Counted from the stretch's first letter, positions 1 through 10,819 are shown. The stretch is 64,000 nt of DNA from Cellvibrio sp. (GCA_035490715.1 DATJLF010000005.1:2208-66207), one strand, 5' to 3'. The notes: generated by a model from the sequence alone, not told the origin. Made by a program: numbers and translations.

Positions 1-402
1 GCAGAAATAGGTTTAAAGGTTTTCCAAATTCCCTATGATCAACCTATTCGCGTCAGGGGTATTACAAAAAATAATTTCTTTACCCTTTACGATATCGGTA
101 TGCTGGGAATAATCTCGCATTCACAGGTGCCCTTGCGAGTGGCAACCATGGCTGGATTCCTTTTATCATTCGTTAGTATTTTTATTGCTGCTATCTATTT
201 CTTCCTGAAATTAATTTTTTGGAACTCATTTAGTTTGGGCATGGCTCCGATTGTTATCGGTATTTTCTTCTTCGCCTCCGTGCAGCTATTTTTTGTCGGT
301 ATTTTGGGTGAATACCTTGGTTCCATTCATTTATATAGCAAACGTCGCCCCTTGGTTATTGAACAAGAACGAATTAACTTTCCCTCTGAAAATAATAATT
401 AA
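1..402 (+). CDS. 3' part of a GtrB/ArnC-like GT2 polyprenol-phosphate glycosyltransferase (5' truncated by window edge)
   Basis: Frame is open from base 1 (AEIGLKVFQIPYDQPIRVRGITKNNFFTLYD...). S..PLR.A motif, two C-terminal TM helices and GILGEYLGSIH...RRP are typical of the GtrB/ArnC C-terminus. Confidence 0.8.
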   Translation, partial: AEIGLKVFQIPYDQPIRVRGITKNNFFTLYDIGMLGIISHSQVPLRVATMAGFLLSFVSIFIAAIYFFLKLIFWNSFSLGMAPIVIGIFFFASVQLFFVGILGEYLGSIHLYSKRRPLVIEQERINFPSENNN

Positions 403-417
403 TAGCAGGCTCTTCCT

Positions 418-1410
418 ATGTCAGTAGTAACGCTCGGCAATGCAAAACAATTTGTCTGCGCTGATGACATTAGCATTCTGGATGCAGCAAAAGCACAGGG
501 AATAATATTGGAACATAGCTGTAGAACAGGCCGGTGCGGAGTCTGTAAAGCAAAGGTTATACAAGGCACTACCCGTCTGACCCAGGAAGAAACTGGCATT
601 ACCCATGAAGAAACCAATGAAGGCTTTGTACTGACCTGCTGTCGAACAGCAAGTGAGGACACTGCACTGGATATTGAAGATTTGGGGGCATTGGCTGATA
701 TTAAAGTGCAGACGCTCCCTTGCAAAATAGATTCGATTACCTACCTCGCCGAAGATATTATACGAGTTATATTGCGTTTACCGCCGACAGGAAATTTTAA
801 TTTTTTACCAGGGCAATATATAAATATTATTGCTAAAAATTCCATTCGCCGAAGTTATTCAATTGCGTGCAACCATCAACAGAACGGAAAACTTGAGTTG
901 CATATCCGCAAGGTTCCACAGGGGATTATGAGTCAATATTGGTTTGAAGAGGCAAAGGAAAATGATCTCTTACGCTTTGAAGGGCCACATGGCACCTTTT
1001 GTTTTCGCGAAAAAACAGAAAAAAATATTATTTTCCTTGCCACAGGCACAGGCATAGCGCCTGTAAAAAGTATTCTGGAATTTTTGGATAGTGCACCGTC
1101 ACTGTTAAACGAACGCAAGGTGTCTGTTTATTGGGGGGGAAGGACACTGGCTGATATTTACTGGCAACCGGACTACAGCCACATAGCCATCTCATTTAAT
1201 CCCGTACTCAGTCGCTCCCAGGCATTCCAATGGGATGGACATCAAGGTTACGTGCAAGATGCAGTTACAGCAGACCAACTCAATTGGAGCGATTCAGTTG
1301 TTTATGCCTGCGGTTCACCCGATATGATTCGGGATGCAAAAAAATTATTAGTTCAGCAAGGCCTTAAGATTAACAATTTCTTTTCAGATGCGTTTGTAAG
1401 TTCACAATAA
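418..1410 (+). CDS. ascD: CDP-6-deoxy-delta3,4-glucoseen reductase (E3): 2Fe-2S ferredoxin plus FAD/NAD reductase
   Basis: CRTGRCGVC...LTCC 2Fe-2S motif, RSYSIA FAD motif, ATGTGIAP and YACGS NAD motifs; adjacent to rfbF/G/H. Confidence 0.85.
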   Translation: MSVVTLGNAKQFVCADDISILDAAKAQGIILEHSCRTGRCGVCKAKVIQGTTRLTQEETGITHEETNEGFVLTCCRTASEDTALDIEDLGALADIKVQTLPCKIDSITYLAEDIIRVILRLPPTGNFNFLPGQYINIIAKNSIRRSYSIACNHQQNGKLELHIRKVPQGIMSQYWFEEAKENDLLRFEGPHGTFCFREKTEKNIIFLATGTGIAPVKSILEFLDSAPSLLNERKVSVYWGGRTLADIYWQPDYSHIAISFNPVLSRSQAFQWDGHQGYVQDAVTADQLNWSDSVVYACGSPDMIRDAKKLLVQQGLKINNFFSDAFVSSQ

Positions 1411-1426
1411 TTAATCAGGAGCGATT

Positions 1427-2200
1427 ATGAAAGCCGTTATTCTTGCCGGTGGCCTGGGCACCCGGTTGAGCGAAGAAACTGTCACACGCCCCAAGCCCAT
1501 GGTAGAAATCGGTGGCAAACCCATTTTGTGGCATATCATGAAAATGTATTCGGCGCATGGAATTAATGAATTCATTATTTGCTGCGGCTACAAGGGCTAC
1601 ATCATCAAAGAATATTTTGCTAACTATTTTTTGCATATGTCTGATGTGACATTTGATATGAGCCAGAACAATATGCATGTGCATAACCAACGCGCTGAAC
1701 CCTGGAAAATTACCTTGGTTGACACTGGCGATAATTCGATGACTGGTGGTCGCTTGAAGCGTGTGTATGACTACATAAAAGATGATTCTGCGTTTTGTTT
1801 TACCTACGGAGATGGCGTCAGCGATATCAATATTGCGCGTACCATCGACTTTCATTTAACACATGGCAAGCTAGCCACTTTATCTGCCACCTACCCTCCA
1901 GGACGTTTTGGTGCACTGGACATTGATGGAATCTGCGTAAAAAGTTTTAAAGAAAAACCAAAAGGCGATGGAGCGATGATCAATGGCGGTTTCTTTGTGC
2001 TTTCTCCAACAGTCATCGATTTAATCGAAGATGACAGTACCGTTTGGGAACAGCATCCGCTGACACAACTCGCCAATGAGGGTGAACTGATGGCTTATAA
2101 GCATGAGGGATTTTGGCAACCCATGGATACATTGCGTGATAAAACGTATCTCGAAGAGCTGTGGGCCTCCGGTGCAGCGCCCTGGAAAATTTGGGAGTAG
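1427..2200 (+). CDS. rfbF: Glucose-1-phosphate cytidylyltransferase
   Basis: [32 protein letters not shown] and [11 protein letters not shown] motifs. Confidence 0.95.
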
Positions 2201-2202
2201 AT

Positions 2203-3282
2203 GTGAAAGCGCAAATCGACACAGTATTCTGGCAAGGCAAGCGGGTTTTCATAACCGGCCACAGTGGATTTAAAGGTGCCTGGTTATCACTTTGGCTCCA
2301 TCAATTGGGAGCGAAGGTCAAAGGCTTTTCATTGGAACCACCCACTTCACCTTCACTGTTCGATGCAATTAATATTTCCACGTTGATAGAATCAGAAACA
2401 GGAGATATTCGCAATTTACAAGCAATTACAAAAAGTTTGCGCGAGTTTAATCCGGATATTCTTATCCACATGGCCGCACAGCCACTTGTCCGATTTTCAT
2501 ATGAAGACCCGGTAGCCACCTATTCAACCAATGTCATGGGCACCATCCATGTATTGGAGGCTGCACGTCAATGCACGAATTTGCGTGCAATTGTGAATGT
2601 CACTACCGACAAATGTTATGAAAATCGTGAGTGGGAATGGGGTTATCGTGAAAATGAACCCATGGGTGGTCACGATCCTTATAGCAATAGCAAAGGCTGC
2701 GCAGAGCTAGTGACCTCGTCGTATCGCAATTCCTTTTTTAATACCGCTGAAAGCCCGGCACTGGCTTCAGCACGAGCCGGTAATGTTATTGGTGGCGGTG
2801 ATTGGGCGCAGGATCGTTTAGTGCCCGACGTACTGCGTGCATTCAGTGCGCACAATCCGGTTATTGTGCGCAACCCTAAAGCAACTCGCCCCTGGCAACA
2901 TGTGCTCGAACCCTTAAGTGGTTATTTAATTTTGGCCCAGGCTTTATTTAAATCCGGCCACACGTTTGCTGAAGGTTGGAATTTTGGCCCACGCGATCAG
3001 GATGCTCGGCCAGTAGAGTGGATACTGGATAATATGATTGCCCATTGGGGGCCTGAAGCACGGTGGCAGTTGGATAACAATCCACAACCACATGAAGCCA
3101 ATTTTTTAAAACTGGATATTTCCAAAGCAAAGGCGCGATTGAACTGGTCACCTACCTGGGACCTCGACTATACATTGGAAAAAATCGTGGGCTGGCATCG
3201 CGCATGGCTTGGGCACGAAGACATGTATACATATTCAATTGCAGAAATTAAACATTACATGGCAAGTATGCAAAGCCAGTAA
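2203..3282 (+). CDS. rfbG: CDP-glucose 4,6-dehydratase
   Basis: FWQGKRVFITGHSGFKG, TTDKCYEN, DPYSNSKG and RPWQHVLEPL motifs. GTG start at 2203 with GGGAG RBS preferred over the track start at 2161. Confidence 0.93.
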   Translation: MKAQIDTVFWQGKRVFITGHSGFKGAWLSLWLHQLGAKVKGFSLEPPTSPSLFDAINISTLIESETGDIRNLQAITKSLREFNPDILIHMAAQPLVRFSYEDPVATYSTNVMGTIHVLEAARQCTNLRAIVNVTTDKCYENREWEWGYRENEPMGGHDPYSNSKGCAELVTSSYRNSFFNTAESPALASARAGNVIGGGDWAQDRLVPDVLRAFSAHNPVIVRNPKATRPWQHVLEPLSGYLILAQALFKSGHTFAEGWNFGPRDQDARPVEWILDNMIAHWGPEARWQLDNNPQPHEANFLKLDISKAKARLNWSPTWDLDYTLEKIVGWHRAWLGHEDMYTYSIAEIKHYMASMQSQ

Positions 3283-3319
3283 TCATGAATTTTTTTTATA
3301 TAATTTGTAAGGCTGCATT

Positions 3320-4633
3320 ATGACTCCTGAATTCCTGCGTCAAGAAATAGCAAAACTGGTGCAACAATTTGCAGAACTCACCACCGCACCGAAACCATTT
3401 ACACCCGGTGAAAGTGTTATTCCTCCGTCCGGTAAAGTTGTTGGCGCGCGCGAGATGCAATTAATGGTCGAAGCATCCCTGGATTGCTGGCTCACCACCG
3501 GTCGATTCAACGCCGAGTTTGAAAAAAAATTGGCAGAGTTCCTTGGTGTTAAATATTTGCTCTCCGTGAACTCCGGTTCATCCGCCAACCTGGTTGCTTT
3601 CAGCGCACTGACTTCACCCAAATTAGGCGCTCGTGCTATTAAAAAAGGTGATGAAGTGATTGGCGTTGCAGCGGGCTTCCCCACTACGGTTAACCCCATC
3701 ATTCAATTTGGCGCAATCCCGGTTTTTGTTGACGTCGATGCAAACACACACAATATCAATGCCGATTTAATTGAGGCAGCAATTACACCGAAAACCAAAG
3801 CAATTATGTTGGCTCATACCCTGGGCAACCCGTTTAATCTCGCCAAAGTAAAAGCATTGTGTGAAAAATATAATTTATGGCTGGTGGAAGACTGTTGCGA
3901 TGCGTTAGGAGCAAAATACGACGGCAAATTGGTGGGGACATTTGGCGATATAGGAACCCTGAGCTTTTACCCTGCACATCACATCACTATGGGTGAAGGC
4001 GGTGCTGTGTTTACCAATAATCCCCAATTAAAAATGATCGCAGAATCTTTCCGTGATTGGGGCCGCGATTGCTATTGTGCCCCCGGCTGCGACAATACCT
4101 GTGGCAATCGTTTCGGCCAACAATTTGGTAGCCTGCCTGCTGGTTACGATCACAAATATGTGTATGCACATATTGGTTACAACCTGAAAATTACTGATAT
4201 GCAAGCCGCATGTGGGCTAGCACAACTGGAACGTGCACAGGAATTTATTGATACCCGTAAACGCAATTATGATTTACTGAAAACGCGTTTGAAAAACCTG
4301 AACGATTTTATTGATATCGCCCAGGCAACACCTAACAGTGAACCGTCCTGGTTCGGTTTCCCCGTCACATTAAAAGAAAGTGCCGGTGTAAACCGCGTTG
4401 ACCTAATCAAATTTCTTGATCAACACAAAATTGGTACCCGTTTGTTGTTCGCCGGTAACTTAACTCGCCAACCTTACTTCCAAGGCGTTGAGTATAGGGT
4501 TGCAGGAGATCTGACTAACACCGACAACACCATGAATAATACTTTCTGGTTGGGCATTTACCCGGGGTTAGGTGCAGAGCATTTCGATTTTGTGGCTGAA
4601 AAGTTTGAAGAATTTTTTGGTTTGAATTTTTAA
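3320..4633 (+). CDS. rfbH: CDP-4-keto-6-deoxyglucose 3-dehydrase (E1; PMP and 2Fe-2S dependent)
   Basis: SFYPAHHITMGEGG has His in place of the aminotransferase Lys; EDCCD and RDCYC...DNTC Fe-S cysteines are present. Confidence 0.93.
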   Translation: MTPEFLRQEIAKLVQQFAELTTAPKPFTPGESVIPPSGKVVGAREMQLMVEASLDCWLTTGRFNAEFEKKLAEFLGVKYLLSVNSGSSANLVAFSALTSPKLGARAIKKGDEVIGVAAGFPTTVNPIIQFGAIPVFVDVDANTHNINADLIEAAITPKTKAIMLAHTLGNPFNLAKVKALCEKYNLWLVEDCCDALGAKYDGKLVGTFGDIGTLSFYPAHHITMGEGGAVFTNNPQLKMIAESFRDWGRDCYCAPGCDNTCGNRFGQQFGSLPAGYDHKYVYAHIGYNLKITDMQAACGLAQLERAQEFIDTRKRNYDLLKTRLKNLNDFIDIAQATPNSEPSWFGFPVTLKESAGVNRVDLIKFLDQHKIGTRLLFAGNLTRQPYFQGVEYRVAGDLTNTDNTMNNTFWLGIYPGLGAEHFDFVAEKFEEFFGLNF

Positions 4634-4639
4634 CCTGCT

Positions 4640-5743
4640 ATGAATAGTTCACCCACCATTTCCGTGCAGACACACTACCAACCCGGCGTTGCGCTGGAGG
4701 ATCTGGAACTCATCGTAAACCAGCTTGCTACGGTATGGGACGCTCTGCGTAACCAGCATATTTTTATTACCGGCGGAACCGGCTTTGTGGGTTGTTGGTT
4801 ACTGGAGGCATTGTTGTGGGCAAATGAACAACTGGATTTGCAATTAACACTCAGCGTTTTAACTCGCAATCCCGCTGCATTTACCAGCAAAGCGCCGCAT
4901 CTGGCAACACATAAAATCATTAACCTGATTCAGGGCGATGTCACTAACTTACAATCCATTCATGGCCGATTTGATATTGTTATTCACGCGGCAACTGATG
5001 TAGCTGGAATTAATAGCAATCCCCTCATAACGTTTGAACAAATAGTGGCAGGCACCAAAGAAACGCTCGCACTTGCCCAACGCAGCCACACCCAACGTTA
5101 TTTATTAACCAGCTCCGGTGCAGTTTATGGCCGACAACCAGAACATATCACGCATCTGCCTGAAGATTTTGCAGGCGCACCAGCATTGCTTGATACAGCC
5201 ACAGCCTACGGCCAAGGCAAACGAGTCTCTGAATGGCTAACGGCTTGCCAAAGCAACCAACAATTGCATGTTGGAATCGCACGCTGTTTTGCGTTAATTG
5301 GTCCCTACTTGCCACTGGATGCACAATTCGCTGCCGGTAATTTTATTCGCGATGGATTGGATAACAAAACAATTGCAGTGAATGGTGATGGAACCAGTTG
5401 CCGTTCTTATCTATACGCAGCAGATATGGTAATTTGGTTGTTACGTATTTTATTCAGCAATAACGCCACTGCCTGTTACAACCTTGGTTCTCAAGAAAGC
5501 ATTTCCATTAAAGAGCTAGCCGAAACAATTTCACACATTATTTACCATGAGAATCGCACTGCGATAGCCAAACAACCCACCATAAATTCTCCCATTCAAC
5601 GTTACATTCCCGATACAAGCAAAGCACAGCGAGAGCTTGGTTTAAAGCAATATACCGATTTGCACAATGCCATCAGCAAAACAATTGCGTGGGAACAACA
5701 ACGAAGAAAACTTATTAACCTCTATACGGAGAGGCCGGCATGA
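4640..5743 (+). CDS. Extended SDR, NAD-dependent epimerase/dehydratase/reductase
   Basis: TGGTGFVG Rossmann motif, TSSGAVYG and YGQGK (YxxxK) catalytic motif. Confidence 0.85.
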   Translation: MNSSPTISVQTHYQPGVALEDLELIVNQLATVWDALRNQHIFITGGTGFVGCWLLEALLWANEQLDLQLTLSVLTRNPAAFTSKAPHLATHKIINLIQGDVTNLQSIHGRFDIVIHAATDVAGINSNPLITFEQIVAGTKETLALAQRSHTQRYLLTSSGAVYGRQPEHITHLPEDFAGAPALLDTATAYGQGKRVSEWLTACQSNQQLHVGIARCFALIGPYLPLDAQFAAGNFIRDGLDNKTIAVNGDGTSCRSYLYAADMVIWLLRILFSNNATACYNLGSQESISIKELAETISHIIYHENRTAIAKQPTINSPIQRYIPDTSKAQRELGLKQYTDLHNAISKTIAWEQQRRKLINLYTERPA

Positions 5744-6561
5744 CTGCATTTACTCCAAACCTACTGCGTCAAACCGTTTTAAAAATGGCTTATTCAGGGG
5801 CAACAGTACATATTGCGTGTGCATTTTCTATTATCGAAATTATGGCTGTGCTCTACCGCTATCATTTGCGGTATTCCAATAATAATCCAGCAGCACCTGA
5901 TAGGGATTATCTGGTTTTGAGCAAAGGCCACGGAGTAATGGCTCAATATGCGTGTCTTTATGAAAAAGGTTGGCTCAGCAAAGTCGACATGGAAAATTAT
6001 TTTAAAGATGGATCCAAATTAAAAGGGTTATCCGATGCACATATTTCCGGCTGTGAAGTGACTTCCGGTTCCCTTGGCCACGGTTTATCTGTTGGTGTAG
6101 GTATGGCACTGGCGGCAAAACTGCAACAAACAGATCAGTTCTGTTATGCGGTTGTCGGCGATGGGGAAATGAATGAAGGAACAATGTGGGAGGCACTTTT
6201 ATTTGCGCGGCAACACGCTCTGGATAATTTAATTATCATTGTTGACGAAAATGGATTCCAGGCGATGGGAACAACGAACGATGTATTGCAATTGGGAAAA
6301 TTAACCGAAAAATTTTCAGCATTTGGTTTTGATGCAATTGAAGTCGATGGCCACAACGAAACAGAATTGCACCAGGCATTGACCCAACTCAAAAATAAAA
6401 AAAATGGTGCACCAAAGGCAATTATTGCACGCACAGTGAAAGGCAAAGGTGTGAGTTTTATGGAGCACGATAATACCTGGCACTATACCCGTTTGAATGA
6501 CACCACTTTTGAACAGGCCATGATTGAGCTGGGCGCCTGCACTTTGGAGCCACAAGTATGA
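5740..6561 (+). CDS. Split transketolase, N-terminal ThDP-binding subunit
   Basis: LSKGH, GSLGHG and GDGEMNEG...VDEN ThDP motif; KGKGVSFME. ATGA overlap with the upstream gene. Confidence 0.9.
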   Translation: MTAFTPNLLRQTVLKMAYSGATVHIACAFSIIEIMAVLYRYHLRYSNNNPAAPDRDYLVLSKGHGVMAQYACLYEKGWLSKVDMENYFKDGSKLKGLSDAHISGCEVTSGSLGHGLSVGVGMALAAKLQQTDQFCYAVVGDGEMNEGTMWEALLFARQHALDNLIIIVDENGFQAMGTTNDVLQLGKLTEKFSAFGFDAIEVDGHNETELHQALTQLKNKKNGAPKAIIARTVKGKGVSFMEHDNTWHYTRLNDTTFEQAMIELGACTLEPQV

Positions 6562-7469
6562 GATCGATTTTTTCCCAAGCACTTCTCGCCGCTGCCGAGG
6601 CAGATCCGAAAGTCTTGTTGCTCACTGGCGATCACGGTTACGCTTTGTTTGATGAATTTCGTAAACACCGCCCACAACAATTCATCAATGCCGGAATTGC
6701 CGAGCAAAATATGGTAGGTGTCGCCGCAGGTTTAGCGAAAGCCGGATTCAAGCCCATCGTCTATGGACTCAGTGCATTCGTACCCATGCGAGTATTGGAA
6801 CAAATAAAAATTGATGTCTGTTATGAAAATTTGCCCGTCATATTTATTGGCGACGGCGCCGGCCTGGTGTATAGCAGTCTAGGTAGCAGCCATCAATCGA
6901 CTGAAGATATAGCGGCTTTGCGAGCTATCCCTAACATTTCCATCCTCTCACCCTGTGATCAACAAGAAATGCATTATGCCATGCAACAAGCACTGCAATT
7001 TACTGGCCCTACTTATGTACGCATGGGCAAATCAGACGTAGGACAAGTTCACTCGTCCCCCGTAAATGTAAATGCGGGTGACCTTATCCAGATTCGCACA
7101 TCCCGCAATCCACAGATTGCATTTATAGCCACCGGATCGATGGTTAAAACTGCACAGCAATTAGCAAATATTAAAGATGCTTCTGCCTGGAGTGTTCCCG
7201 TCATAAAACCAGTTAACGCACAACAGCTTCGCCATATCGCACAGGGAGTTAATACGATTGTAGTTTTGGAAGAGCATTCTATTTATGGCGGGTTAGGTAG
7301 TCTGGTCGCAGAAATTGTGAGCGAGCAAGGTCATACCAAAGTCATTCGGCTGGGCGTGCAAGATAGGTTCTCGCAAAAATGTGGCAGCTATGATTATCTT
7401 ATTAAAGAACATCAGTTGGACCTTGATTCACTGATACCTAAAATCACCGAACTTAACGCTGAATATTAA
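6558..7469 (+). CDS. Split transketolase, C-terminal (pyrimidine-binding plus C-domain) subunit
   Basis: NAGIAEQNMVG, G.SHQSTEDIA, YVRMGK and EEHS..GGLG motifs. ATGA overlap with the N subunit. Confidence 0.9.
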   Translation: MRSIFSQALLAAAEADPKVLLLTGDHGYALFDEFRKHRPQQFINAGIAEQNMVGVAAGLAKAGFKPIVYGLSAFVPMRVLEQIKIDVCYENLPVIFIGDGAGLVYSSLGSSHQSTEDIAALRAIPNISILSPCDQQEMHYAMQQALQFTGPTYVRMGKSDVGQVHSSPVNVNAGDLIQIRTSRNPQIAFIATGSMVKTAQQLANIKDASAWSVPVIKPVNAQQLRHIAQGVNTIVVLEEHSIYGGLGSLVAEIVSEQGHTKVIRLGVQDRFSQKCGSYDYLIKEHQLDLDSLIPKITELNAEY

Positions 7470-7501
7470 ATTAGCAATCGGTTGCAAGACGGGAGACCAG
7501 C

Positions 7502-9244
7502 TTGGATTTTCGCAATCATAAGGAAACGATACTGCTTGGCTTATTATTGCTTGGCTATATTATTCTGCGCAGTTTTTATCTGGATGCAGTACCACGCTGG
7601 GATGCAGCTACCTATTGGGGCGCCATAAAGAAAGCCGTGGAAGCCACCCAAGCGATCACTAGCGTTTCAGCTCTACCAAAAGTTGTTCTCGATACTTACA
7701 ACGTTTTTGGTCATTCGGCTATGGGGTATGTTGGGCTCATAGTAATAGCGCAGCTATTTGATTATCCGAATTTATTTTCACTCAATCTTGTTCACTTGAT
7801 CCTCGCCACTTTTTCGGTGTTTTGCAGTTATAAAATTTTCCGTTGGTTTTTACCAAAAACGGAGCAGCTCCCGGAAGTCTTATTAGCCACAGCTATATAC
7901 GCGCTTGATCCACTATTTTTTGCCAGTTCCATTTTTATCAATACTGATTTTCCCGTGTTGGTTTTTTACACCGCAGCATTGGCAGCACTGCTTTATGGGC
8001 GCTATGGCTGGTTCTCCCTCGCCTGCATCATGATGATTTTTTCCAAAGCAACAGGCACTTTATTTTGGGTCTCGCTGGTGGGTGGCATTGGGTTGTATGG
8101 ATTGATTATTTTAATTCAGGATATAACATCCAGACATTCACTTAGCCTCAGTCGTTTATTCCCCCCCAATCAACAGCGCCTTAATCCAGTCTTGACATAC
8201 CGAAGCATCGCTTATCGAATAACCTGCCTATTATTACCGGGAATAGCATACAAACTTTACTCAATTGCACAGCAAGGCAACAGTTGGGTGTTGAATAGCG
8301 GAATGAAGTTTGATTCCAAAGGCTGGAATTGTTTTGGCTTTAATCCGCGCGTGATGTCCAACCGTGCAGCAGAGATTTTTATTTTAAATTTTCACTGGAT
8401 ATTGTTGGCAGTAACCATTATCGCATTGTTAATTGGTTATGGTCGTCAATTGGAACGACGCAAGAATCATGCAGTCATTACATCATACACAGAAGATGAA
8501 TTATCAATCACTAAATCACAGATTAACCACTGGTGGGGACTACTGCCCGTATTGACGGGCTTCATCATCTTCCTTGCTTTTAACCTGAGTTATATCACTT
8601 ACATTATTCCGCGTTACGTTGTGGCCGGTGGATTTTTTTTGCTGGTTTTTACTCTGCTTGCGTTACAGTATTCAAGTGAATCAAGAAAATTACGGTGCGC
8701 ATTGTTAACCATCATATTTACTTTATTTGGCTGGCAAACATTCCGTACCGTTGACCCACTATCCATCGCATTTTTTGGCTCAACACCTTTTAGTGAGCAC
8801 CGCATATTGCAAATCGATAGTCCCGGTGAAGCACAAGGCAATGGTTTTGTATACAACGCCGAGTTTGCACTTGAGGACAAATTGCTTAATCGCATGCAAA
8901 AGGCAATTCCAATAGCCAAGGACACGATAATAATTACCTGGAATAAAGACAGCGGTTATTCATGGTTCACGCGCGGTGATACTTTCGTAGACGCCACTAC
9001 ATTGGAAAGAACTATTGATACCCGCAATAGTTTTCGCTACAACATCATTGAAGCCAGTAGCGTACATTCAGCTATCGCTCCGACTAAAGCGGTTTATATT
9101 TATATGCCGTGGCTCGCGCAATTTTCCAACGAGGAACAGGAGTTAAAACACTTGAGCCAGTTTTACGATATATCTGCTCCGGAAGATGTTGGTTTTCAGG
9201 GTTACAGTTTACGTTTGTATCGACTTAGCCGGAGAACACCATAA
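7502..9244 (+). CDS. Polytopic membrane protein, probable GT-C (ArnT/PMT-like) glycosyltransferase
   Basis: About 10-12 hydrophobic segments, acidic motif WDAATY in the first external loop, NTDFP motif, soluble C-terminal domain. TTG start with GGGAG RBS. Confidence 0.6.
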   Translation: MDFRNHKETILLGLLLLGYIILRSFYLDAVPRWDAATYWGAIKKAVEATQAITSVSALPKVVLDTYNVFGHSAMGYVGLIVIAQLFDYPNLFSLNLVHLILATFSVFCSYKIFRWFLPKTEQLPEVLLATAIYALDPLFFASSIFINTDFPVLVFYTAALAALLYGRYGWFSLACIMMIFSKATGTLFWVSLVGGIGLYGLIILIQDITSRHSLSLSRLFPPNQQRLNPVLTYRSIAYRITCLLLPGIAYKLYSIAQQGNSWVLNSGMKFDSKGWNCFGFNPRVMSNRAAEIFILNFHWILLAVTIIALLIGYGRQLERRKNHAVITSYTEDELSITKSQINHWWGLLPVLTGFIIFLAFNLSYITYIIPRYVVAGGFFLLVFTLLALQYSSESRKLRCALLTIIFTLFGWQTFRTVDPLSIAFFGSTPFSEHRILQIDSPGEAQGNGFVYNAEFALEDKLLNRMQKAIPIAKDTIIITWNKDSGYSWFTRGDTFVDATTLERTIDTRNSFRYNIIEASSVHSAIAPTKAVYIYMPWLAQFSNEEQELKHLSQFYDISAPEDVGFQGYSLRLYRLSRRTP

Positions 9245-9247
9245 AAG

Positions 9248-9266
9248 AAGGCCCCAACGGGCCTTT
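9248..9266. terminator. Probable bidirectional intrinsic terminator
   Basis: AAGGCCC-caac-GGGCCTT between convergent genes. Confidence 0.5.
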
Positions 9267-9267
9267 G

Positions 9268-10683
9268 TCAATTTTCGGCCATACGGGCTTCTCGCGCCGC
9301 TACACCGGTAAACTTCCACTTTCCTTGCTTCCAACGCCAGCGTTTAATGGAGGCACGAACCAATTCATCCATAATGGCAGCAATTAATAATCCATAGAGT
9401 CCCAAACCGCAGGGTATTGCCAACACAAAGGCCAAGGGTACAGAAAAAAGCCAAATCACCCCGATGCTGGAAATTGAAGTGAACGCCGCATCACCTGTAC
9501 AACGCAATGCAGATCCGATAGTGATATTCACTGTACGCCAGGGCTCTGCCAGGAAACTTAATACAAACGCCCACAAACCGATGGCAACAACTTCCGGATC
9601 ACTACTGAACAGTTTCAATATCGGTTGATTAAACACCAACCAACAGAACGCTAATATACTGGTGCCAATTAACGATATTTTTAAACTTTGTTTTAATTGC
9701 AAATTCACCAGCTCGAATTCACCACGCCCTACACGTTGCGCAATAATGGCTTCGGTCGCCATTCCGATAGCGATAGAAATCATCAAGCAAAATAAAAAGG
9801 TGTTATAGGCATACACTTTTACTTTGAGTGCCAGATCACCTACTTCGGCGGCAATCCAATTCAAGGCGATCATGTATGCCTGGAATGACATTGGCTCAAG
9901 AATCGATGGTGCTGCGATCATAATGACCGGGGTAATCAATACTACAAAATGTTTCAAGCCTTCACGCAGTGGAATATGGATGCGCAATTTGCAATGCACA
10001 ACCATCGCCACGAATAACAAACTGCATCCCGCCGCAATCGTACTTGCAATAGCAACCCCTTTGACACCTGAGGGAGGTATTCCCGCAAATCCGTAAACGG
10101 CAATAGAGCAACCAATAATATTGGTTACAAATAAAATAATGTTACTGAACGTATTCCATTTTGGCTCACCATAAATATTTAAAATGGTTTGGTAGATAAC
10201 CCTGCAACCCCAAAGCGCCACCATCCACCCAATAATTGAGAGATAAGTTCGCGCATGCATTTCCACATCAGGGCTTAATGACATCGCCGATGCAACCAAC
10301 GGCCCGCCAAAATTCACTGACAGCGCGGCGATGAGCGCAAGCACAACCACAAAGATTGCGTAAGCTGCAATAGTGGCATTCCCACGCGCATAGTCATTGG
10401 CACCGATTCGCTGGCTAGCGATACTTGCCCCTGCGAATGCACTGACAATTAAAAACGCATTGGCAACAAACACCAATGGTGTAATGGCACCAACAGCAGC
10501 GGCGGCACTGTCCGAAATACGGCTGAGAAAATACATATCCACCAAAGGAATTGTGTAAGTCACCGCTTGATCAATAAACATGGGGCCAGACATTCCCCAA
10601 ATACCTTTTTCCAATACCTTGCTTTGCGGAGGTTGTTTGCGGATATTTTCTTTGACTGATTTTTTGGCGGAGGAATTACTCAT
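9268..10683 (-). CDS. MATE-family (MOP superfamily) transporter
   Basis: Two six-TM halves, D.YFLSRISD.AAAAVG, SQRIGA/AQRVGRG repeats and LRCTGDA. ATG at 10683 preferred. Confidence 0.85.
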   Translation of the reverse strand: MSNSSAKKSVKENIRKQPPQSKVLEKGIWGMSGPMFIDQAVTYTIPLVDMYFLSRISDSAAAAVGAITPLVFVANAFLIVSAFAGASIASQRIGANDYARGNATIAAYAIFVVVLALIAALSVNFGGPLVASAMSLSPDVEMHARTYLSIIGWMVALWGCRVIYQTILNIYGEPKWNTFSNIILFVTNIIGCSIAVYGFAGIPPSGVKGVAIASTIAAGCSLLFVAMVVHCKLRIHIPLREGLKHFVVLITPVIMIAAPSILEPMSFQAYMIALNWIAAEVGDLALKVKVYAYNTFLFCLMISIAIGMATEAIIAQRVGRGEFELVNLQLKQSLKISLIGTSILAFCWLVFNQPILKLFSSDPEVVAIGLWAFVLSFLAEPWRTVNITIGSALRCTGDAAFTSISSIGVIWLFSVPLAFVLAIPCGLGLYGLLIAAIMDELVRASIKRWRWKQGKWKFTGVAAREARMAEN

Positions 10684-10819
10684 AAACAACTCAAAATTGG
10701 CACGACCAACGTACAAGACGCAAATCCGTTTACACGAATTTGCGTCTAAAAAGTTTGGAGGGAGGTTTTCTAACCTTTTTCTCGACTAGTTAAGTTACGT
10801 TAGTGTAGCGCGAAAGCGA

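Follow-up and report, generated by a model that had tools for sequence, protein, structure and literature searches.

A split transketolase linked to 3,6-dideoxyhexose genes in Cellvibrio: a candidate cassette for sugar branching

Branching of a 3,6-dideoxyhexose precursor by a thiamine diphosphate (ThDP) enzyme is so far established only for enzymes of the YerE type, while transketolases have been proposed as branching enzymes in a few antibiotic pathways. In the pathway to yersiniose A in Yersinia pseudotuberculosis O:6 (DdhA-D, YerE, YerF), the intermediate that receives the branch is CDP-4-keto-3,6-dideoxy-D-glucose, and a ThDP enzyme and then an NAD(P)H reductase are encoded directly after ddhC (PMC12247030, PMC9306805). 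Here we describe an operon with the same route to this intermediate at positions 1-9244 (plus strand) of a 64,000-nucleotide stretch of DNA from the soil bacterium Cellvibrio sp. (GCA_035490715.1 DATJLF010000005.1:2208-66207; the whole stretch is hereafter called the window). Its ddhC is followed by genes for an extended short-chain dehydrogenase/reductase (SDR) and for the two halves, TK-N and TK-C, of a split transketolase (TK). We infer that the TK pair and the SDR are functional stand-ins for YerE and YerF, taken from a different ThDP superfamily, and the predicted product likewise carries a two-carbon branch at C-4 which is reduced to an alcohol. YerE, compared here together with the YerE-like enzymes ErwE, JanthE and MMAR_2332, is a single chain of the decarboxylase (acetolactate-synthase-like) superfamily, whereas the Cellvibrio enzyme has two subunits with a transketolase fold. 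The predicted delivery of the sugar differs as well, by a Gtr/Arn-like lipid-carrier module here and by a cytoplasmic O-unit glycosyltransferase in the case of yersiniose.

Split transketolases have been proposed to branch keto-sugars in miharamycin and amipurimycin biosynthesis and in 13 Streptomyces sequences, none of them characterised in vitro according to the review PMC12247030, which cites Krug et al. (2024). There, as here, a C2 unit would be added to a keto-sugar to form a tertiary alcohol. However, those enzymes belong to actinomycete nucleoside-antibiotic clusters and are proposed to transfer a hydroxyacetyl unit, whereas the enzyme described here belongs to a proteobacterial surface-glycan cassette for a CDP-3,6-dideoxy sugar and has a leucine at position 100. 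A further two-subunit type, the E1 alpha/beta-type enzymes of actinomycete antibiotic pathways ("alpha-KADH2": KbDH-alpha/beta; aldgarose, avilamycin), likewise uses pyruvate for a C2 branch on an NDP-keto-deoxysugar, but is part of the 2-oxoacid dehydrogenase E1 family of ThDP enzymes and acts on dTDP-sugars of secondary metabolites. In the open-access full-text literature, which our search covered, we found, the review PMC12247030 aside, no paper that connects transketolases with O-antigen clusters or with the pathway to CDP-dideoxyhexoses.

The operon is single and tightly packed, and ends at a hairpin which it has in common with a convergent MATE gene (Table 1). An earlier reading made from the sequence alone (hereafter the sequence-only reading) had placed seven genes between positions 418 and 7469, a complete ddhD-A-B-C set, an SDR and two overlapping transketolase half-genes. 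We found all seven on the plus strand at these coordinates, with DdhA, DdhB and DdhC above their equivalog cut-offs. As there is no equivalog model for E3, DdhD was assigned by its domain matches; the protein has ferredoxin [2Fe-2S], FAD and NAD(P) domains, and its gene lies directly upstream of ddhA. The same reading had reported a histidine in place of the lysine and iron-sulfur cysteines as hallmarks of E1. In agreement with this, His220 of DdhC aligns with the pyridoxal phosphate (PLP) lysine of a neighbouring DegT aminotransferase, and Cys193, Cys251, Cys253 and Cys261 (C-X57-C-X1-C-X7-C) are invariant in 16/16 orthologues. Strong homology shows that DdhA, DdhB and DdhC together with DdhD would convert glucose-1-phosphate into CDP-4-keto-3,6-dideoxy-D-glucose. 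The SDR/TK-N and TK-N/TK-C junctions are ATGA overlaps of 4 nt each, a layout that suggests translational coupling of the SDR to TK-N and of TK-N to TK-C.

Sequence comparison indicates that the split pair is not the housekeeping transketolase of this genome. A canonical full-length Tkt, the gene of which is broken across two contigs by the assembly, is encoded elsewhere; its two halves share 73% and 67% identity with E. coli TktA. The solved structure closest to the split pair is the split transketolase of Carboxydothermus hydrogenoformans (6YAK, 41% identical to TK-N; 6YAJ, 33% identical to TK-C), with which it shares the split architecture; fold, cofactor-binding and catalytic residues are common to both this enzyme and E. 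coli TktA. In the numbering of TktA (its sequence was checked against the Tkt of this genome), the residues for cofactor binding and catalysis H26, H66, D155, E160, N185, H261, R358, D381, E411 and H473 are kept, and the ThDP/Mg motif (GDG...N), His26, His66, His261, His473 and Glu411 are found in the orthologues as well as in the window protein.

By contrast with canonical transketolases, the substrate site is altered and the genomic context is glycan biosynthesis, not the pentose-phosphate pathway. The substitutions H100L, I187F, I189A, H258N, S385A, F434L, H461G, L466Y, D469L and R520K are invariant in the clade, and Leu100 and Ala189 occur in 120/120 TK-N cluster representatives (67-99% identity). 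Among the residues that define the substrate site of EC 2.2.1.1, Arg358 alone is kept, the others being replaced by Leu100, Leu469, Ala385, Gly461 and Lys520. The best NCBIfam transketolase model (NF004559) scores 252 bits with TK-N and 157 bits with TK-C, below its cut-off of 488. The single-chain TPP_enzyme_N/M/C architecture of YerE is likewise absent: apart from a marginal TPP_enzyme_C match of 24 bits, the two chains carry transketolase domains, Transketolase_N on the one and Transket_pyr with Transketolase_C on the other. That the enzyme is of a different class from YerE, as the sequence-only reading had maintained, agrees with these assignments. The cassette would be YerE/YerF-like in its function while lacking the structure that defines YerE, and its ThDP enzyme is a transketolase in structure while lacking the substrate site that defines EC 2.2.1.1.

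In canonical transketolases, where these positions are well understood, His100 binds the C1 hydroxyl of the donor, Asp469 the C2 hydroxyl of the acceptor, and Ser385, His461 and Arg520 the substrate phosphate. DXS, a transketolase relative and natural user of pyruvate, has Phe or Tyr at position 100. In the engineered transketolase of Geobacillus stearothermophilus, H102L lets the hydrophobic alkyl chain of donors of the pyruvate type bind better, D470L variants accept propanal and non-hydroxylated aldehydes, and variants at S385/H462/R521, its phosphate site, lose phosphate recognition (PMC11997939; PMC7696235). Because the substrate-site changes match both directed evolution and DXS, the split transketolase looks like a natural enzyme adapted to a donor that is not hydroxylated and to a deoxy acceptor that carries no phosphate. 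The natural substitutions H100L and D469L coincide independently with the outcomes of directed evolution.

This pattern also bears on the nature of the branch, which the sequence-only reading had described as possibly hydroxylated, in a candidate new sugar. It is conceivable that a hydroxylated donor (hydroxypyruvate or a ketose phosphate) supplies a glycolaldehyde unit, which after reduction by the SDR would lead to an undescribed 4-C-(1,2-dihydroxyethyl)-3,6-dideoxyhexose. Glycolaldehyde transfer is the native transketolase reaction, the retained residues His26, His261 and His473 also contact the dihydroxyethyl-ThDP intermediate, and a hydroxyacetyl branch is proposed for the split enzymes of miharamycin and amipurimycin. 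We nevertheless regard this alternative, the main rival of the mechanism that we favour, as improbable, since the ligand of the donor C1 hydroxyl is leucine in every member of the family and the phosphate-site residues for ketose-phosphate donors are gone. Moreover, a sister clade without E1 (locus L065) keeps His100 together with Leu469, Ala461 and Lys520. Residue 100 thus varies with the type of cassette, and H100L looks like a deliberate specificity switch. Leu100, which parallels H102L and DXS, favours an acetyl donor, so that the product may be yersiniose-like and not a new sugar; an acetyl branch appears at least as likely as a hydroxylated one, and the earlier proposal is weakened to this extent. 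Chain extension, which had been offered as a second possibility, is rejected because a 6-deoxy sugar offers no aldehyde. Use of the keto-sugar as a donor in a C-C cleavage was likewise rejected: its C-5 bears the ring oxygen and no free hydroxyl, and its C-1 is blocked by CDP.

We therefore favour a mechanism in which TK-N and TK-C would generate a ThDP-bound two-carbon carbanion by decarboxylation of a 2-oxoacid, most likely pyruvate (an acetyl unit). Gene context and active-site changes suggest that the C2 unit is added to the C-4 ketone, which would give a tertiary alcohol with a 4-C-acyl branch. The SDR would then reduce the side-chain ketone to yield CDP-4-C-(1-hydroxyethyl)-3,6-dideoxyhexose, a sugar of the yersiniose type, or the 1,2-dihydroxyethyl analogue if the donor were hydroxylated. 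Domains, fold and gene order suggest that the family 2 glycosyltransferase (GT2) of GtrB type loads this sugar onto undecaprenyl phosphate, that GtrA helps flipping, and that GT-C enzyme(s) pass it on to a periplasmic acceptor glycan, probably lipopolysaccharide. We consider the whole scheme, from C2 branching at C-4 by the transketolase through SDR reduction to lipid-carrier transfer, to be probable, with considerable room for doubt.

The SDR is the sole enzyme of its kind in the cluster and matches no equivalog. Its Ser...YxxxK motif (Ser/Tyr/Lys triad) is invariant, as is an Arg after beta2, which suggests the use of NADPH. Its role as an NADPH-dependent ketoreductase of the new side chain, analogous to YerF, would be in accordance with its position, but the closest PDB relatives are UDP-glucuronic acid (UDP-GlcA) decarboxylases (UXS, 97 bits), and the regiochemistry is therefore not fixed by the sequence. 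An association with the transketolase is apparent in the SDR homologue P0225, a natural SDR-TKN fusion of 619 aa.

The distribution of the cassette provides further evidence that these genes act together. When TK-N was used to scan 185,579 species genomes, 58 loci were obtained. In all loci where TK-N is at least 62% identical and enough flank is available, a 3-dehydratase gene is directly upstream. In nearly all of these the SDR is present as well and the gene order is DdhA-DdhB-DdhC-SDR-TKN-TKC; they come from Cellvibrio and related metagenome-assembled genomes (MAGs), from Janthinobacterium, Vogesella and Trinickia, and from Oxalobacteraceae. In an Oligoflexia MAG these genes are present in shuffled order. 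Because at least 15 loci, from more than one class (Gamma- and Betaproteobacteria, Oligoflexia), share the DdhA-B-C-SDR-TKN-TKC arrangement, we interpret it as more than chance. Within the taxonomic family of the window, the cassette gene was found in 1/61 sampled genomes, a rarity in keeping with an accessory surface-glycan module that moves horizontally. TK-C, used in an exhaustive search, gave 1449 representative proteins at E <= 1e-30, and among the approximately 125 best-scoring full-length matches nearly all have Gly461 and a residue other than Asp, mostly Leu, at position 469. The family of non-canonical split transketolases is therefore large.

Such linkage is also relevant to the simplest alternative, in which the SDR is a terminal C-4 ketoreductase similar to Abe or Prt, the product is a plain 3,6-dideoxyhexose, and the transketolase is unrelated to it and serves, e.g., pentose-phosphate or other carbon metabolism. 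The classical 3,6-dideoxyhexose pathways all end with an SDR 4-reductase, the cluster has one SDR, and the solved structure closest to the TK pair is that of a true split transketolase. We regard this alternative as quite unlikely given the canonical Tkt elsewhere in the genome, the replacement of the residues for substrate phosphate and hydroxyl groups, the unreached NCBIfam transketolase equivalogs, the repeated and tight linkage of the transketolase to ddhC, SDR and GT2 across classes, and the SDR-TKN fusion together with the ATGA coupling. The separate Tkt, the changed recognition residues, the cross-class synteny and the fusion likewise argue against an enzyme that acts on pentose-phosphate substrates only, which the sequence-only reading had named as the outcome contrary to its proposal. 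Its central suggestion of a split transketolase as C2-branching partner of dideoxy-sugar genes and an SDR therefore has indirect support as far as a specialised paralogue tied to these genes, with the SDR as its partner, is concerned, and this support does not extend to the novelty or hydroxylation of the branch.

Several observations weigh against the mechanism we favour. Leu100 could serve the binding of the acceptor rather than the donor, and His473 is kept here, while the engineered pyruvate-using variants also had H474 altered. The UXS-type relatives of the SDR are not side-chain reductases, and the SDR could act at a ring carbon instead. We know of no precedent for a GtrB-type enzyme that uses a CDP-sugar. 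DdhD is linked only in cassettes of the Cellvibrio type: the betaproteobacterial (L011, L014-L017) and Oligoflexia (L022) cassettes have an Fe-S-type E1 with the four cysteines kept, and no linked DdhD/E3 was found in any of L011, L014, L015, L016, L017 and L022. Two Planctomycetes loci (L021 and L023) have a TK pair with a GT2 and no ddh genes within 10 kb. Finally, according to the review PMC12247030, acceptance of a sugar-nucleotide ketone has yet to be demonstrated in vitro for any transketolase.

As to the missing E3, the best E3-like proteins in the genomes that hold L011, L014, L015 and L022 are FNR-type, 31-38% identical and located elsewhere, and were rejected as orthologues. It follows from their low identity and lack of linkage that E3 is not a fixed part of the cassette. 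The Planctomycetes loci raise the possibility that the transketolase acts on another intermediate, such as an undecaprenyl-phosphate-linked sugar or a different keto-sugar, and that its most constant neighbour is the GtrB-like GT2 and not ddh. In Cellvibrio, Trinickia, L017, L019 and L022, a gene next to the TK pair indeed encodes a GtrB-like GT2. However, Janthinobacterium, Vogesella and Oxalobacteraceae have ddhABC-SDR-TK without a GtrB-like GT2, TK-N and TK-C are soluble proteins without a membrane segment, and the ddh genes of the Planctomycetes may sit elsewhere, as the view covered 10 kb only. We consider this possibility very unlikely. In both Planctomycetes MAGs the TK pair has Leu or Val100, Gly461 and Leu469 and is followed by a GtrB-like GT2 (L021:10001-12686, L023:5361-8088).

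With regard to delivery of the sugar, the sequence-only reading had recognised the cassette and left out its tie to the surrounding Gtr/Arn-like lipid-carrier module. The window begins within the gene of a GT2. Upstream on the same contig there are a partial gene for a multi-pass membrane protein, a GtrA-family gene (an open reading frame, ORF, of 126 aa; PF04138, 60 bits) and the complete GtrB/ArnC-like GT2 of 315 aa (PF00535, 103 bits). A GtrA-family protein and a GT2 with PgfS/ArnC-like C-terminal transmembrane (TM) helices are thus both present. Downstream of TK-C, a 580-aa membrane protein has a GT-C fold according to an AlphaFold2 model, which reached a pLDDT of 87.5 and a pTM of 0.90 with a 44-sequence alignment after an alignment of 8 sequences had given a pLDDT of 49.7. 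The top 23 Foldseek matches of this model in the PDB are all GT-C proteins (TM-scores 0.31-0.47), including ALG9, ArnT 5F15, ALG12, STT3, Pmt4, PglB and EmbC. Its family has Asp28 (at least 90% of sequences) and an invariant Trp33-Asp34 just after TM1. At the sequence level, a profile search against PDB sequences gave a chance match only and none to a solved GT-C protein, a search against Pfam at E <= 1 gave nothing meaningful, and there is no match to the ArnT or PMT families. The protein is predicted to take the lipid-linked sugar as its donor.

As GtrA and the GT2 are located upstream and the GT-C fold downstream, we interpret the Cellvibrio cassette as a lipid-carrier decoration system of the Gtr/Arn type that makes the sugar it needs. 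The Gtr (GtrA/GtrB/GtrC) and Arn (ArnC/ArnE-F/ArnT) systems likewise combine a GtrA-like protein, a GT2 and a GT-C fold beside sugar-supply genes; their sugars are UDP-Glc and UDP-Ara4FN, in contrast to the CDP-activated branched dideoxyhexose predicted here. In six further lineages the TK pair likewise recurs beside a GtrB-like GT2, which speaks for this link: Trinickia and L017 have both GtrA and GT2 at its flank, whereas L019, L021, L022 and L023 have the GT2 without GtrA. The cassettes of Janthinobacterium and Vogesella lie inside O-antigen clusters of the rmlBADC/EpsG type with no GtrB-like gene.

The new element would be that a ThDP enzyme of another superfamily branches the sugar; the window holds one instance of this and not a unique one. 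If this holds true, the cassette would provide a natural template for the biocatalytic synthesis of tertiary alcohols, thousands of genes labelled "transketolase" and "NAD-dependent epimerase/dehydratase" would receive the right functional name, and branched surface sugars would be predicted for many environmental bacteria. The cassette is widespread and readily testable. In particular, it offers a small and clean test of a ketone acceptor for the transketolase fold, because the substrate supply is fully defined and there are no other candidate enzymes. A more far-reaching reading, which we put forward tentatively and hold doubtful in its entirety, would join these elements: split transketolases with Leu100, Gly461 and Leu469 would be the first natural acylators of a sugar-nucleotide ketone with a transketolase fold and form a large C-branching family; the branched 3,6-dideoxyhexose of Cellvibrio would not simply be yersiniose, but differ in stereochemistry or branch; a GtrB-type enzyme would transfer it from CDP, a donor class not known for such enzymes, to undecaprenyl phosphate; and a new GT-C family would attach it in the periplasm.

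Table 1. Features of the Cellvibrio operon and its downstream border, in window positions.
Feature	Position	Strand	Basis
C-terminal 133 aa of GtrB/ArnC-like GT2 (polyprenyl-phosphate glycosyltransferase, two C-terminal TM helices)	1..402	+	NCBIfam PgfS 60 bits, ArnC 26 bits on the fragment
DdhD/E3-type [2Fe-2S] flavin reductase (CDP-6-deoxy-delta3,4-glucoseen reductase type), 330 aa	418..1410	+	Fer2 + FAD_binding_6 + NAD_binding_1
DdhA, glucose-1-phosphate cytidylyltransferase	1427..2200	+	TIGR02623, 478 bits vs cut-off 300
DdhB, CDP-glucose 4,6-dehydratase	2161..3282	+	TIGR02622, 511 bits vs cut-off 278
DdhC/RfbH (E1), pyridoxamine phosphate (PMP)- and [2Fe-2S]-dependent 3-dehydratase	3320..4633	+	NF011936, 748 bits vs cut-off 423
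Extended SDR	4640..5743	+	PF01370/PF16363, no equivalog
TK-N, ThDP (PP-domain) subunit of non-canonical split transketolase	5740..6561	+	PF00456, 131 bits
TK-C, Pyr-domain + C-terminal-domain subunit of split transketolase	6558..7469	+	PF02779 + PF02780
GT-C-fold membrane glycosyltransferase, 580 aa	7502..9244	+	AlphaFold2 model + Foldseek; no Pfam match
Terminator-like hairpin, bidirectional	9247..9266	.	8-bp stem, 5 G-C pairs, T tracts on both strands
MATE efflux gene	9268..10716	-	converges on the operon, same terminator hairpin

DdhB probably starts about 12 codons further downstream than the GTG at 2161, because the TIGR02622 match begins at residue 23 of the ORF. The contig start upstream of the window (L063:2-100) lies inside the membrane-protein gene and has a run of nine-base repeats encoding (TQE)n, which are probably the reason why the assembly breaks there. 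In Cellvibrio fibrivorans, which has the same operon (L018), the homologous membrane-protein gene encodes 666 aa, and before it lie genes for a further GT2 and for a membrane protein of 130 aa, so that the operon extends further to the left. The same MATE gene, followed by one for an 832-aa membrane protein, flanks the cassette of C. fibrivorans, and the shared MATE flank implies that the insertion site is conserved within the genus.

Among the more distant relatives, the Rhizobiaceae MAG of L019 keeps the TK pair and has, in place of E1, a ColD-like dehydratase in which His stands for the lysine and the Fe-S cysteines are absent. At L019:5128-11709, genes for DdhA, DdhB, a Lys-type DegT aminotransferase, a GNAT protein and this dehydratase precede the TK pair, and genes for a GT2, for a small membrane protein similar to EamA and for a membrane protein of 556 aa lie upstream. 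The product could be a branched amino or acylamino sugar. The L065 locus (L065:2392-7034) has an SDR-TKN fusion followed by TK-C, with DdhA- and DdhB-like genes before them and no E1. Together with the retained His100, this suggests a sister cassette whose substrate is CDP-4-keto-6-deoxyglucose and whose donor is possibly hydroxylated. In Firmicutes, the glycan loci of Clostridia and Selenomonadaceae (L027, L029, L032, L034, L039, L051-L054 and L056) in many cases have two adjacent split-TK pairs. One pair resembles canonical enzymes at the histidines. The second pair combines Gly461 and Leu469 with the changes H26N, H66Q, H100Q and H261F, and is therefore without most of the catalytic histidines and yet conserved.

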